The notes below the pieces were generated by a model. The model saw only the letters and a program-made list of their open reading frames with translations, ran no database searches and had not been told where the DNA came from. Below, piece after piece: positions 49,863 to 63,046 of a stretch of 64,000 nucleotides of DNA (the first letter of the stretch is position 1; each line of letters begins with the position of its first letter). Origin of the DNA: Escherichia coli (GTDB lineage Bacteria > Pseudomonadota > Gammaproteobacteria > Enterobacterales > Enterobacteriaceae); NCBI RefSeq assembly GCF_041886205.1, contig NZ_CP169029.1; one strand, given 5' to 3'. The translations under genes were made by a program, and so were the position numbers.

Positions 49863-50854
49863 TTATTTCACCGTACCTAAAATTTCGATTTTCGCTGCTC
49901 TGGCTTTGACTTTACGTGACCAAATAGAGGTAAGAATTGGCACCAGAATCGAAGTCACAATGACCGCCGTCGCTACCAGCGAAGTTGCTGCCGGAGCCAT
50001 CGGTTTAAACGCAGGCACCATTTCTGCAATCAGCACAGGTGTCGCTACCGCGGCCCCTGCGGAACTGGAAGCGGCAATTCCGGCAGTGCCATCGCCACCG
50101 CCAATCAATTTATCGGCGATAATCAACGGAATACCGGTCACGATAATTACTGCCACACCCAACAGGATCCCCAGCAAACCAGTCTGGGCAATCACAGTCA
50201 AATCAATGGTATTGCCCAGCGCGAAGGCAAAGAATGGAATCAGCGTTTGCACCGCTTTGCTGAAAAATTCTCGTAATTCAGGGTCAAGGTTCCCCAGGGC
50301 AAAGCCCACCAGGAACGGTAATACTGCGCCGACGAAAACATGCGGTTCAAACGAGGCAATCCCTGCAGTGCCCAGAATAATCATCGTCATGAGCGGCCGG
50401 ACTCCAACGACATCAACACAAATGCCCCAGCTTCTTCTTTTGTGCCGTACTGCTGCATGATGGAAGCGTAAAGTCCGCCATTGGTCATATCCATCGCCGC
50501 CACCAGCGCCAGCGTTGAAAGTCCGGCAAAGAATCCAACTTCAACACCATGTTCCGGAATAATGCGCGAGGCAATTGCCGCAACCACCCACGCGACGGCA
50601 ATTTTTGTTACCACCAGCGTACCGGATTTACGCAATACCGTTCCCGTCGCGCTTAATTTTATTGACGCCCCCATGCAAAAAAACCACACCGCCAGAATGG
50701 GCACCGTACCGGTAATCATCCCGTTGGTGAATGATCCAAAATATTTCCCCGCCCCCGGCGAGAAGGTGTGGCACAGTGCGCCAAGGAATAGCGGGACGAG
50801 CATCATCCCCCCCGGGATTTTCTCAATCGAGCGTTTTATCTGCATTTCCATCAC
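49863..50854 (-). pseudogene. kdgT: 2-keto-3-deoxygluconate permease, split into two frames by an apparent 1-bp deletion
   Basis: N-terminal ORF 50387..50854 (155 aa) and C-terminal ORF 49863..50390 (175 aa) are contiguous KdgT-family halves in different frames; total about 330 aa as expected for KdgT. Confidence 0.75.
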
Positions 50855-55053: not shown

Positions 55054-57812
<2,759 letters not shown>

Positions 57813-57816
57813 ACAC

Positions 57817-58038
57817 TGCCGGATGCGGCGCGAGCGCCTTATCCGGCCTACAGGTCGGCAACAGTTGTAGGCCTGATAAGACGCGACAGCGTCGCATCAG
57901 GCATTGATTGCCGGATGCGGCACGAGTGCCTTATCCGGCCTACAGGTCGGCAATAGTTGTAGGCCTGATAAGACGCGACAGCGTCGCATCAGGCATTGAT
58001 TGCCGGATGCGGCACGAGCGCCTTATCCGGCCTACGGG
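57817..58038. repeat. Tandemly repeated BIME unit (~92 bp x ~2.4) between rhaA and rhaD
   Basis: Unit tgccggatgcggcgcgagcgccttatccggcctacaggtcggcaacagttgtaggcctgataagacgcgacagcgtcgcatcaggcattgat repeated at 57817-57908 and 57909-58000 with 3 substitutions; partial third copy to about 58038. Confidence 0.85.
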
Positions 58039-58078
58039 TCGTGCATCTGACAACACCGAATTTACAGGAACACAGAAC

Positions 58079-58903
58079 ATGCAAAACATTACCCAGTCCT
58101 GGTTTGTCCAGGGAATGATCAAAGCCACCACCGATGCCTGGCTGAAAGGCTGGGACGAGCGCAACGGCGGCAACCTGACGCTGCGCCTGGATGACGCCGA
58201 TATCGCGCCTTATAAAGACAACTTCCATGCACAACCGCGCTATATCCCGCTCAGCCAGCCCATGCCTTTACTGGCAAATACACCGTTTATTGTCACCGGC
58301 TCCGGCAAATTCTTCCGTAACGTCCAGCTTGATCCTGCAGCTAACTTAGGCGTCGTAAAAATCGACAGCGACGGCGCGGGCTACCATATTCTCTGGGGGT
58401 TAACCAACGAAGCCGTTCCCACTTCCGAACTTCCGGCTCACTTCCTTTCCCACTGCGAGCGCATTAAAGCCACCAACGGTAAAGATCGGGTGATCATGCA
58501 CTGCCACGCCACCAACCTGATCGCCCTCACCTATGTACTGGAAAACGACACCGCGGTCTTTACTCGCCAACTGTGGGAAGGCAGCACCGAGTGTCTGGTA
58601 GTGTTCCCGGATGGCGTTGGCATTTTGCCGTGGATGGTGCCCGGCACGGACAAAATCGGCCAGGCGACCGCACAAGAGATGCAAAAACATTCGCTGGTGT
58701 TGTGGCCCTTCCACGGCGTCTTCGGCAGCGGTCCGACACTGGATGAAACATTCGGTTTAATCGACACTGCAGAAAAATCAGCACAAGTATTAGTGAAGGT
58801 TTATTCGATGGGCGGCATGAAACAGACCATCAGCCGTGAAGAGCTGATTGCACTCGGTGAGCGTTTTGGCGTTACGCCACTATCCAGTGCGCTGGCGCTG
58901 TAA
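58079..58903 (+). CDS. rhaD: Rhamnulose-1-phosphate aldolase
   Basis: ORF-track entry 57908..58903 has its 5' part inside the BIME repeats; trimmed to [24 protein letters not shown] (274 aa). Confidence 0.9.
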
Positions 58904-58912
58904 GGAGCAAAC

Positions 58913-59227
58913 ATGATCCGCAAAGCCTTTGTCATGCAGGTTAACCCCGACGCCCACGAAGAGTATCAGCGTCGGCATAACCCCATCTGGCCGGAACTGG
59001 AAGCAGTGTTGAAATCTCACGGTGCGCATAACTACGCCATTTACCTCGACAAAGCGCGTAATCTGCTGTTTGCCATGGTAGAGATTGAATCTGAAGAACG
59101 GTGGAATGCGGTAGCCAGCACTGAAATCTGCCAACGTTGGTGGAAATATATGACCGACGTTATGCCAGCTAACCCGGATAACAGCCCGGTGAGTAGCGAG
59201 CTGCAAGAAGTGTTTTACCTGCCTTAA
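58913..59227 (+). CDS. rhaM: L-rhamnose mutarotase
   Basis: 104-aa [33 protein letters not shown]. Confidence 0.9.
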
Positions 59228-59267
59228 TGAGTTGCGGTGCCGGAAAATATCCAGCACCGCGACTTCA

Positions 59268-60661
59268 TCAGAAGAAGTATTTAAAGCGAACGCGTGCGCC
59301 GTAACGGTCATCAGTATCATCACCGTGTTTTTTATCACCGTCGCTATCCAGAATGGAGTAATACGTCCCGAGGTAAATATTAAAGTTCTCCATATCCATC
59401 ACATTAGCGAACTGATAAGACGCATGAATGGTGTGAATGGTGTACGTCCCTTCATCATCAATCCAGCAGTCGTTATCACAAACTACACCGCTGAATTCAT
59501 CAATCTTATTGTGCGCGTAGATATAACCGAGCTCGAAACGTTTCCACAGCGCGTTAATCCCGGCAGTGAAATCTTTCTCATTATTAGCATCTAAATAGGC
59601 GGTATTAAGATTAACCACAATGCCATTGTCCGGATCCATTTTCAGGCCGTTCCAGGTCATGCTCATACCATAGCCGGTACGATCGGACTGATCGACAAAA
59701 TTACCCTTGCTATCGGTATAACCATAAGCATTATTTACCACGTTAGCTTCCATCGCTGCGGAAACGGTGAATTCTTCCGTCGGCGACCAGGCAATTACCG
59801 GACGCAGATAAGCAACATTTTTCTGCTGCTCCATATCGCGTCCATGATAATTACCGTCATTATATAAAGATGTTCCGTCTTCAAGTAACGTGTTTAATTC
59901 AAAATACCAGTTATCAAGTTGTTTGCTGACGAGGAAATTACCGCCAGCGTTAGAACGCCCGCGGCCCTCTTTCATCATATAGATATAACCGCTGCCATCG
60001 TCATAAAGATCGTTCGCAGTATTACCGGAATGTTCAACAAAGGTATCCTGATTCAACGGGAACATATCGTAGGCTTCAAAACGGCCTACTTTGACCTCCA
60101 GTCGTTTTCTTTGCCAAAGAAGAATACCGCATCATCGATATTTACTGAACCGTACATATCTCCCAGCGGTTGTGCGGAGAACCCGGCGAAATAACCATTA
60201 TCCAGTTTTCGCATACCATCAAAACCTAACAGAATACGACCATTGAGATTCCACTGTTCATTAGTGGGATCGCTATTCACATCAGCGTTGGTCATTGCCA
60301 GCAGGCCATGATTACTTTCCGCATCCATATTAAATTCTACGTCACCGTAGATTTTTAAATCGCCATAACCTGAAAGCAAAAGATTAGGTGAGGTGGCATT
60401 TTTCTTTGCAGATTCCGCCGTTGTCTGTCCATTTACCGGCGTATTGCCCTGGGCAGCCTTAATTTCGCGGATCTCAGCGGCTTGTTGTATCTGCAGCTGT
60501 TTAACCTGGCTCTCTGCTTTTGCCGCCCGCATTTCTGCCGCTTCCAGGCGTTCTTCCAGCAATGCCATGCGTTGTTCCAGCGTTAAATGCTGTGTTTTTG
60601 CCATACCGGTACTACATGCCAATAATAAACCGATGGCTAAAGATAATGTCGATTTTTTCAT
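59268..60661 (-). pseudogene. Outer-membrane porin-like gene (signal peptide + coiled coil + beta-barrel), split by a frameshift
   Basis: ORF 60086..60661 encodes signal peptide MKKSTLSLAIGLLLACSTGMA and a heptad coiled coil; ORF 59268..60065 encodes a Gly/Tyr/Asn/Asp-rich barrel-like domain ending ...RVRFKYFF; the frames overlap between about 60088 and 60134. Confidence 0.55.
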
Positions 60662-61137
60662 TATTTACGTTCCCTGAAATAAAGGAGGCCCTACGCTTTC
60701 CAAAAGGAATACGTATATAGAGAAATATAAAGTGTGCACTTTCGAATTTTTAATCCAACTTCAGCAGGCCGATGGATAGTATCCCGCCGCATAATATGAG
60801 TAAATCCGCTGATTTCCTGGAACGTGAGGAATATAACAATAGTGCCGTTTTTAACTAAATATCGTAAAAAATATGAGATATGATTCACGCTGACACATAA
60901 GCCAAAAATATAAATAACGTTTAGACAAATTATCCGAGACATTTAAACATTTACAAAATCATTAAATAATGATTTTTTATTCACAACATTTATTTAACCC
61001 ATCAATATGTGCCTTACACCGCAAAATTTATCCTTCACTCTGCCTTATATTGTCACGACTTCACGACATATCCGCGCTCATCACAAAACCGCCCCACCGT
61101 TACAATTAACAATAATATTTTTTCATGGAGTCCAATA

Positions 61138-61584
61138 ATGGCAGCTCTTACTGCAAACTGTATTGACCTGAATATTCAGGGCAATGGCGCTTATTCCGTT
61201 CTGAAGCAGTTGGCGACAATAGCGTTACAAAACGGTTTTATCACCGACTCACACCAGTTCCTGCAAATTCTGCTGCTGCGCGAAAAAATGCACTCCACCG
61301 GTTTTGGTTCCGGCATCGCCGTGCCGCACGGTAAAAGCGCCTGCGTTAAACAACCGTTCGTGTTATTCGCCCGCAAAGCGCAGGCCATTGACTGGAAAGC
61401 CAGTGACGGCGAAGACGTCAATTGCTGGATCTGCCTCGGCGTGCCGCAAAGCGGCGAAGAGGATCAGGTCAAAATCATCGGCACACTGTGTCGCAAAATT
61501 ATCCACCAGGATTTTATCAACCAACTGCAACAGGGCGACGCCGACCAGGTGCTTGCCTTGTTAAATCAAACCCTCAGCTCATAA
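61138..61584 (+). CDS. frvA: PTS fructose-like EIIA component
   Basis: ORF-track entry 61009..61584 trimmed to MAALTANCIDLNIQGNGAYSVLKQ (148 aa). Confidence 0.85.
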   Translation: MAALTANCIDLNIQGNGAYSVLKQLATIALQNGFITDSHQFLQILLLREKMHSTGFGSGIAVPHGKSACVKQPFVLFARKAQAIDWKASDGEDVNCWICLGVPQSGEEDQVKIIGTLCRKIIHQDFINQLQQGDADQVLALLNQTLSS

Positions 61585-61594
61585 GGAAGTGGCG

Positions 61595-63046
61595 ATGGAG
61601 TCATCCTTACGTATTGTCGCGATCACCAACTGCCCCGCCGGGATCGCTCACACCTACATGGTGGCGGAAGCCCTGGAACAGAAAGCCCGTTCTCTCGACC
61701 ATACCATAAAAGTGGAAACTCAAGGGTCCAGCGGCGTTGAAAACCGCTTATCCAGCGAAGAGATTGCCGCCGCCGATTACGTGATTCTCGCCACCGGGCG
61801 TGGCTTGAGCGGCGATGACCGGGCGCGGTTTGCCGGGAAGAAAGTTTATGAGATTGCCATCTCCCAGGCGTTGAAAAATATCGACCAGATTTTCAGCGAA
61901 TTACCGACAAACTCGCAGCTTTTTGCCGCAGATAGCGGCGTGAAGCTTGGCAAACAGGAAGTGCAAAGCGGCAGCGTGATGAGCCACCTGATGGCGGGCG
62001 TCTCTGCGGCGCTGCCGTTTGTCATCGGCGGTGGTATCCTGGTAGCGCTTGCCAACATGCTGGTGCAGTTCGGTTTGCCGTATACCGATATGTCGAAAGG
62101 CGCGCCGTCGTTTACCTGGGTAGTTGAATCCATCGGTTACCTTGGCTTCACCTTTATGATCCCCATCATGGGCGCTTATATTGCCTCGTCGATTGCCGAT
62201 AAACCGGCTTTCGCTCCGGCGTTTCTGGTTTGCTATCTGGCGAACGACAAAGCGCTGCTCGGCACCCAGTCGGGTGCGGGATTCCTCGGCGCGGTGGTGC
62301 TGGGGCTGGCGATTGGCTATTTCGTCTTCTGGTTCCGCAAAGTGCGCCTTGGCAAAGCATTACAACCGCTGCTCGGTTCAATGCTGATCCCGTTCGTTAC
62401 TCTGCTGGTTTTCGGCGTGCTCACTTACTACGTTATCGGGCCGGTGATGTCCGACCTCATGGGCGGGCTGCTCCACTTCCTGAATACCATTCCTCCATCA
62501 ATGAAGTTTGCGGCAGCGTTTCTGGTCGGTGCGATGCTGGCGTTCGATATGGGCGGCCCCATCAATAAAACCGCCTGGTTCTTCTGCTTCTCACTGCTGG
62601 AAAAACACATTTATGACTGGTACGCCATCGTCGGCGTTGTCGCGTTGATGCCGCCCGTTGCGGCGGGTCTTGCGACGTTCATTGCGCCCAAACTGTTTAC
62701 CCGACAGGAAAAAGAGGCTGTCAGTAGTGCCATTGTGGTCGGTGCCACAGTCGCAACCGAACCGGCTATACCTTACGCTCTGGCAGCTCCGTTGCCGATG
62801 ATTACCGCCAATACGCTGGCGGGCGGCATTACCGGCGTGCTGGTGATCGCTTTCGGAATCAAACGTCTGGCACCTGGTTTGGGTATCTTTGACCCGCTGA
62901 TCGGCCTGATGTCGCCGGTAGATTCGTTTTATCTGGTGCTGGCGATTGGCCTCGCGCTGAACATTTCATTCATTATCGTCCTGAAAGGATTGTGGTTACG
63001 CCGCAAAGCGAAAGCCGCGCAACAGGAGCTTGTCCATGAACATTGA
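61595..63046 (+). CDS. frvB: PTS fructose-like EIIBC component
   Basis: ORF-track entry 61589..63046; ATG 61595 with AAGGAAG upstream; EIIB motif ITNCPAGIAHTYM then polytopic EIIC. Confidence 0.85.
   Translation: MESSLRIVAITNCPAGIAHTYMVAEALEQKARSLDHTIKVETQGSSGVENRLSSEEIAAADYVILATGRGLSGDDRARFAGKKVYEIAISQALKNIDQIFSELPTNSQLFAADSGVKLGKQEVQSGSVMSHLMAGVSAALPFVIGGGILVALANMLVQFGLPYTDMSKGAPSFTWVVESIGYLGFTFMIPIMGAYIASSIADKPAFAPAFLVCYLANDKALLGTQSGAGFLGAVVLGLAIGYFVFWFRKVRLGKALQPLLGSMLIPFVTLLVFGVLTYYVIGPVMSDLMGGLLHFLNTIPPSMKFAAAFLVGAMLAFDMGGPINKTAWFFCFSLLEKHIYDWYAIVGVVALMPPVAAGLATFIAPKLFTRQEKEAVSSAIVVGATVATEPAIPYALAAPLPMITANTLAGGITGVLVIAFGIKRLAPGLGIFDPLIGLMSPVDSFYLVLAIGLALNISFIIVLKGLWLRRKAKAAQQELVHEH

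Follow-up and report, generated by a model that had tools for sequence, protein, structure and literature searches.

A one-base deletion splits an accessory RafY-family porin gene beside rhaM in a small lineage of Escherichia coli

The locus between rhaM and frvA in the analysed Escherichia coli DNA (a stretch of 64,000 nucleotides, referred to here as the window) almost certainly carries a lineage-specific null allele of an accessory chromosomal gene for a RafY-family porin. Inspection of the ORF list for window positions 57500–62500 revealed two consecutive ORFs on the minus strand, with deduced products of 191 and 265 amino acids, and the peptide string LEQRMALLEERLEAAEMRAAKAESQVKQLQIQQAAEIREIKAAQ and the ending ...FKYFF were present in the translations of the two ORFs. 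According to the RefSeq annotation of strain wlxctx60, whose record differs from the window by 4 SNPs and 0 indels over 7.9 kb, the gene is flanked by rhaM, which ends at 59227, and by frvA, which starts at 61138, both on the plus strand, and the nearly identical locus in wlxctx60 is labelled "carbohydrate porin, frameshifted". Our analysis establishes the frameshift and its position, assigns the gene to its family, and shows that the lesion is inherited in a lineage; the gene family and the pseudogene were already known, and the lesion had been flagged in RefSeq before. The coordinates of all features are listed in Table 1.

Table 1. Features of the split porin gene and its flanking sequences, with positions counted from the first letter of the window.
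Feature	Positions	Strand	Remarks
RafY-family porin pseudogene, whole	59268..60661	minus	1394 bp here versus 1395 bp in intact alleles
5' ORF, 191 codons	60086..60661	minus	Signal peptide, coiled coil, linker, and first approx. 4 predicted barrel strands, then R-S-K and stop
3' ORF, 265 codons	59268..60065	minus	Remaining approx. 12 predicted barrel strands, conserved inner loop, Cys-x3-Cys loop, and ...RFKYFF end
Lesion, one A of the AA pair lost from codon 189 (AAG, Lys)	60096..60097	minus	Alignments with intact alleles
Putative Sec signal peptide, residues 1–21	60599..60661	minus	Read from the sequence; putative signal peptidase I cleavage ...TGMA / KTQ
Predicted periplasmic N-terminal coiled coil, residues approx. 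26–70	60452..60586	minus	AlphaFold2 helix 28–70, low to moderate confidence
Strong hairpin between the convergent stops of rhaM and the porin gene	59227..59268	.	RNA fold of -25.6 kcal/mol, z = -6.1
Divergent intergenic region, AT-rich (34% GC)	60662..61137	.	Presumed porin promoter and frvA promoter

Alignment against intact homologs pinpointed one single indel. Compared to the alleles of BL21, 6EVA, and MB53, the window copy showed only one gap (TGGAAGG to TGGAGG, gene position 565/566), which reduces AA to A in codon 189 and reads as CCTTCC to CCTCC on the plus strand. The gap at 60096/60097 falls within the interval 60088–60134, to which the initial annotation had narrowed the lesion. The loss of this A shifts the frame, and a stop is reached three codons on; the frameshifted translation consists of 188 native residues followed by three aberrant codons (R-S-K) and the stop. 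From the closest intact allele, WP_040063915.1 of strains 6EVA and MB53, the window differs by the deleted base and one missense exchange, Thr342Met, and intact alleles are 99.8% identical over the surrounding 1.9-kb region. Close relatives have one uninterrupted ORF where the window has a 1-bp deletion, and the resulting pair of ORFs was also found in independent assemblies, which identifies the locus as a pseudogene by frameshift. Among four intact E. coli alleles, pN/pS values of 0.05–0.09 (Nei-Gojobori) indicate strong purifying selection on the intact gene, and where intact it is best regarded as a working gene. The earlier description of a decayed porin was right in regard to the disruption and overstated in regard to the decay, given one deleted base and one missense exchange from an allele of a gene that is strongly constrained; the window copy is best described as a very young pseudogene.

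A second gene in the window, kdgT, encoding a 2-keto-3-deoxygluconate transporter (49863–50854, minus strand), is also split by a one-base deletion near 50396 (GGCCCGG to GGCCGG), leaving ORFs at 49863–50390 and 50387–50854. This lesion is common to wlxctx60, where RefSeq flags kdgT as frameshifted. Taken with the porin lesion, the lineage therefore carries two single-base pseudogenes within 10 kb.

When we searched complete E. coli genomes with a 61-mer spanning the porin lesion, 2,475 of the 5,426 gave a match, though an exact one in wlxctx60 only; for the other 2,474 genomes, the best match was 95–99% identical and every listed match spanned 62 bases. A sequencing or assembly error, with the gene truly intact in the strain, could be suspected because just one of the 5,426 complete genomes shows the lesion, because the change shortens a two-base run by one (TT to T on the plus strand), and because kdgT, 9.7 kb away, has also lost one base from a short run (CCC to CC). 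However, the lesion site lies within neither a Dcm nor a Dam motif, and the 191-aa ORF, always followed by the 265-aa ORF, was read on no fewer than 24 contigs, which stem from independent projects and archives. These contigs include short-read Logan assemblies of SRR, ERR, and DRR runs as well as the NCBI drafts GCA_000303635.2 and GCA_021504255.1, an older draft among them, and the exact 191-aa product was indexed in 79 blocks of a large public collection. Comparison of the seven lesion-bearing loci shown with the window and among themselves gave differences of 1–4 SNPs and no indel; they therefore represent separate isolates of one lineage. Since the same broken ORF pair recurs in independent assemblies, including those from short reads, the lesion is a real lineage marker, and an error, which we consider very unlikely, was rejected on these grounds. 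We conclude that the frameshift is inherited and marks a small lineage, and is no artefact.

In its intact form, the protein would be a Sec-exported outer-membrane protein with a 21-residue signal peptide and a coiled coil connected via a linker to a predicted 16-stranded barrel. A family alignment of 28 homologs, including sequences from Citrobacter, Kluyvera, Klebsiella, Raoultella, Enterobacter, Buttiauxella, and Budvicia, revealed a conserved signal peptide, a variable linker, and a strongly conserved barrel region; approximately 170 columns of the alignment are invariant, and 658 homologs were found across Enterobacterales. The hydrophobic N-terminus ending in small-x-A before K is conserved in this alignment. 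A lipoprotein reading of the lipobox-like LLAC in the rhaM-linked E. coli allele was rejected, since the Cys is absent from the other 27 aligned sequences, most of which display ..ANxGxA-K. The heptad-like segment EQR..E.RL..AE.RA..AE is invariant across the 28 homologs, as is a long segment of the barrel (GRFEA.D.FPLN.DTF...G.TA.D.Y.DG.GYIYMMKE.RGRS), and the barrel region shows in addition a conserved Cys pair and the C-terminal motif R.RFKY.F. The aromatic ...RFKYFF end is of the kind that would be recognized by the BAM insertion machinery.

The AlphaFold2 model displayed one long helix and 16 long strands at moderate confidence (mean pLDDT 60, pTM 0.60), with strand count and loop assignments being provisional. 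A Foldseek search with the model returned 16-stranded porins as the best PDB matches, namely OmpU, OprB, BpsOmp38, chitoporin, OprP, and OmpF/C (E values of 1e-11 to 1e-8 for OmpU, OprB, BpsOmp38, chitoporin, and OmpF/C), which points to the 16-strand topology of a porin barrel. The truncated product with its 188 native residues would consist of signal peptide and coiled coil plus roughly 4 of the 16 predicted strands, and would have no C-terminal insertion signal. In the model, the reading frame is lost where the fifth predicted strand begins, so that the truncated product would lose the C-terminal end and be unable to form and close a barrel; presumably it would not be inserted and would be degraded in the periplasm. 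The product of the downstream ORF, in which a signal peptide of its own is absent, would stay unexported even if translated.

A retained or new periplasmic function of the 191-residue product appears highly improbable. The 5' ORF still possesses its start, the ribosome-binding region, the signal peptide, and the conserved coiled coil, and the allele has persisted in a lineage, but its partial barrel segment would be unfolded, no homolog of such a truncated architecture occurred among the 120 listed matches, and the persistence is short (1–4 SNPs per 4–6 kb) and compatible with neutrality. That the break itself is functional, either by programmed ribosomal frameshifting or by phase variation switching the porin on and off, is hardly credible. 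Though phase variation commonly targets outer-membrane proteins and other strains have IS1 and IS5 elements inserted in the porin gene, the site is a change of AA to A within GACTGGAAGGTC without any simple-sequence tract, and reading of the sequence revealed no slippery heptamer before the stop. Furthermore, the exact lesion 61-mer was found in wlxctx60 alone among the 2,475 matching complete genomes, and isolates that have since gained SNPs have stably inherited the lesion. Both mechanisms were rejected on account of the non-repetitive site and the other complete genomes being free of the lesion, and a simple loss of the porin by frameshift is the reading we keep.

Scanning against Pfam assigned both ORFs to PF16966, "Porin-like glycoporin RafY" (Porin_8). 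The 5' ORF matched model positions 1–92 (E = 2e-27) and the 3' ORF positions 102–372 (E = 3.6e-112), while the intact 464-aa protein of BL21 matched positions 1–372 of 372 (E = 7.7e-154). Because they match consecutive parts of this model, the 191-aa and 265-aa ORFs are to be read as the halves of one porin gene of 464 codons, and both are collinear with the single 464-codon ORF of the intact alleles. Two unrelated neighboring genes, for which only the existence of two ORFs starting with their own ATG codons would speak, can be dismissed in view of the consecutive matches (1–92 and 102–372) to a single Pfam domain and the collinearity with one ORF of 464 codons in intact alleles of a region present in 2,543 genomes. 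The initial annotation had described a single porin gene, encoding a signal peptide, a coiled coil, and a beta-barrel, that is disrupted and split into halves in two frames, and this description agrees with the Pfam matches, the alignment with intact alleles, and the helix and strands of the AlphaFold2 model.

Its proposal of a porin of the ScrY/OprB/DcaP type did not hold, however, as the family is RafY, no LamB or OprB barrel was matched in Pfam, and 16 strands are predicted. RafY-family membership follows from the full-length profile match, the close relation to the founding-type porin, and the expected architecture. RafY has been described as a glycoporin for maltose, sucrose, and raffinose (PMC4809568) and is classified under TC 1.B.15, where 16 strands are predicted for the family and oligosaccharides are given as its substrates (PMC4827864). 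RafY is the porin of the E. coli raffinose plasmid pRSD2 (Ulmke, Lengeler & Schmid 1997; Andersen et al. 1998), the family having been described in 1997, and wide-channel behavior of plasmid RafY is reported in titles and summaries cited in PMC4809568 and PMC4827864. The intact protein shares with RafY of pRSD2 the full PF16966 domain, the length of 464 aa, the layout of signal peptide, coiled coil, linker, and barrel, the conserved Cys pair, and the ...RFKYFF C-terminus, at 79% identity and 86% positives over 450 aa in the comparison with the plasmid porin. The plasmid gene follows genes for a LacI regulator, an alpha-galactosidase, an MFS permease, and a GH32 hydrolase, corresponding to the rafRABD-rafY arrangement. 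In contrast, the present gene is chromosomal, convergent with rhaM, located away from rafRABD, and frameshifted in the window. At the DNA level, the plasmid paralog is about 86% identical, with 200 matching places on plasmids and also on some chromosomal islands. Being 79% identical to plasmid RafY, the intact porin would act as a wide diffusion channel for di- and oligosaccharides, e.g., raffinose, sucrose, and maltodextrins.

In comparison, similarities to other sugar porins were confined to single features. ScrY also has an N-terminal periplasmic coiled coil, and the coiled coil of the present protein weakly matches the ScrY-type N-terminal extension PF11471 (Sugarporin_N, E = 0.018–0.08), which several homologs bear as well in the precomputed Pfam list. 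Unlike the 16 strands predicted here, ScrY/LamB barrels have 18; the Pfam scan gave no match to PF02264 (LamB/ScrY), and no LamB or ScrY was found among the 50 fold matches listed. OprB of Pseudomonas (PDB 4gey), which has a role in sugar uptake in common with the proposed function, was the second-best structural match (E = 7.7e-11, TM 0.46–0.50, 16 strands), but this likeness is structural only, with 12% identity, no Pfam match to OprB (PF04966), and no N-terminal coiled coil in OprB. An NCBIfam scan of both ORFs and the intact protein assigned no family and gave only a weak FcmC match on the coiled coil (E = 0.24), and a sequence search of the PDB returned no relative and no RafY-family structure, only chance matches to dehydroquinases.

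Across the species, the intact gene was found convergent with rhaM in 2,543 of the 5,426 complete E. coli genomes (c. 47%), including BL21, O157:H7, ST131, and Nissle. An intact CDS of 1395 bp is present in BL21, 6EVA, MB53, O157, and ST131, and the intact gene is named "carbohydrate porin" in RefSeq. A rafY homolog of O157:H7 has been annotated as rafY2, without rafRABD (PMC4809568). It represents the same gene at the same rhaM-frvA locus, with 97.6% DNA identity over a 2-kb stretch, and differs in that the O157:H7 copy is intact at 1395 bp and the window copy one base shorter. Independent inactivations were also seen, namely IS1A or IS5-family (ISKpn26) insertions within the porin gene in strains 10034940-2 and EC05. 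The porin CDS of Nissle 1917 is 21 bp shorter (1374 bp) and annotated as intact.

K-12 MG1655, in turn, has no porin gene at this locus, in agreement with the initial annotation, and its rhaM-frvA spacing is 300 bp. About 150 bp of unrelated DNA replaces the 1.76-kb segment 59231–60988 there, and in the K-12 spacer no porin remnant was detected, with only the next 150 bp beside frvA aligning at 77% identity, compared to 94.5% for the adjacent rhaM end (megablast). K-12 and the window thus look as if they differed by an old haplotype and not by a recent clean deletion, and the divergence suggests an old or imported haplotype that may also have altered the frvA promoter region. A different hairpin-forming sequence was found in K-12 at the same place between rhaM and frvA.

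Concerning the flanking non-coding sequence, 0 of 200 shuffles folded as well as the hairpin between the convergent stops in the window, and it carries no U-tract on either strand; it probably serves as a transcript end or stabilizer for both genes, a terminator function being suggested by its fold and position. In the divergent region upstream of the porin gene, a sigma-70-like match (60753–60724, minus strand) was no better than chance, and comparison of the upstream regions of E. coli, plasmid, Klebsiella, and Citrobacter genes revealed no convincing shared promoter or operator beyond the ribosome-binding region. Between rhaA and rhaD, the window displays a tandem array of a 92-bp unit (57817–58041, 2.4 copies, 96% matches) with REP/BIME-like palindromic units. 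Further away, wlxctx60 harbors a P2-like prophage (integrase, Cox, RepB) beside cpxP, which is missing from the window (c. 46146), where the sequence continues into fieF as in MB53; the window thus derives from a prophage-free relative of wlxctx60.

Regarding the gene neighborhood, rhaM is the conserved neighbor of the porin gene. In the B2 strains ST131 and Nissle 1917, the porin gene adjoins rhaM, with a truncated DUF3829 pseudogene in place of frvA. The Citrobacter ortholog is 85% identical and also convergent with rhaM, and a gene for an HTH/cupin regulator and azlCD lie on its other side. In Klebsiella sp. B345, the porin (75% identical) is likewise convergent with rhaM, but there it ends a chromosomal cluster of genes for a LacI regulator, a GH36 alpha-galactosidase, and a LacY-type permease, which are absent in E. 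coli and Citrobacter, where the porin gene stands alone. The tentative link to the adjacent frv operon made in the initial annotation finds no support in this comparison, neither within E. coli, where B2 strains keep the porin at rhaM without frvA, nor in Citrobacter and Klebsiella with their rhaM-adjacent porins without frv, and a functional link to frv was rejected on synteny.

The permease of Klebsiella sp. B345 is 75% identical to plasmid RafB, and its cluster may be similar to the one from which the plasmid raf operon arose; no GH32 gene was seen in this cluster beside rhaM (L011:3123-9389). A family member in Buttiauxella closes a cluster of an ABC transporter and GH13, GH130, and DUF1861 genes. 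Family members thus usually end clusters for oligosaccharide utilization, and the E. coli gene stands by itself: its neighbors are rhaM and frvA, with no linkage to rafR, rafA, rafB, or rafD, which sets it apart from a raf operon component. In the upstream 476 bp, tblastn found no remnants of rafR/A/B/D or of the Citrobacter HTH regulator, and, as no raf trace exists upstream of the E. coli porin gene, the idea that this gene is left over from a raf cluster is only a conjecture.

GlyP of Klebsiella pneumoniae, assigned by the authors of that study to the same porin family, was reported to give a fitness advantage to a porin-deficient strain upon upregulation, the porin alone being sufficient for the advantage, and the pore of this family was described as larger than those of OmpK35/36 (bioRxiv 10.64898/2026.03.29.715108). 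In contrast to the E. coli gene, which has no such partners, glyP closes a LacI-regulated operon of permease, hydrolase, and porin genes. One could imagine that a chromosomal RafY-type porin is under conflicting selection in E. coli, as a wide channel would aid the uptake of dietary oligosaccharides and yet admit phages, colicins, or antibiotics, and that the frameshift is an adaptive loss and not neutral decay. The presence/absence polymorphism, the conservation where intact, and several independent disruptions (IS1, IS5, Nissle) are suggestive of such a conflict, but we regard this idea as speculative and rather unlikely.

Beyond a correct annotation, the importance of the finding is little. 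The conserved partner of the porin gene is the rha locus, together with a chromosomal raf cluster in Klebsiella, and not the frv operon, and the one-base porin deletion provides a convenient lineage marker. Strains of the frameshift lineage would be devoid of a wide-channel accessory porin, which could affect their oligosaccharide uptake and envelope permeability.
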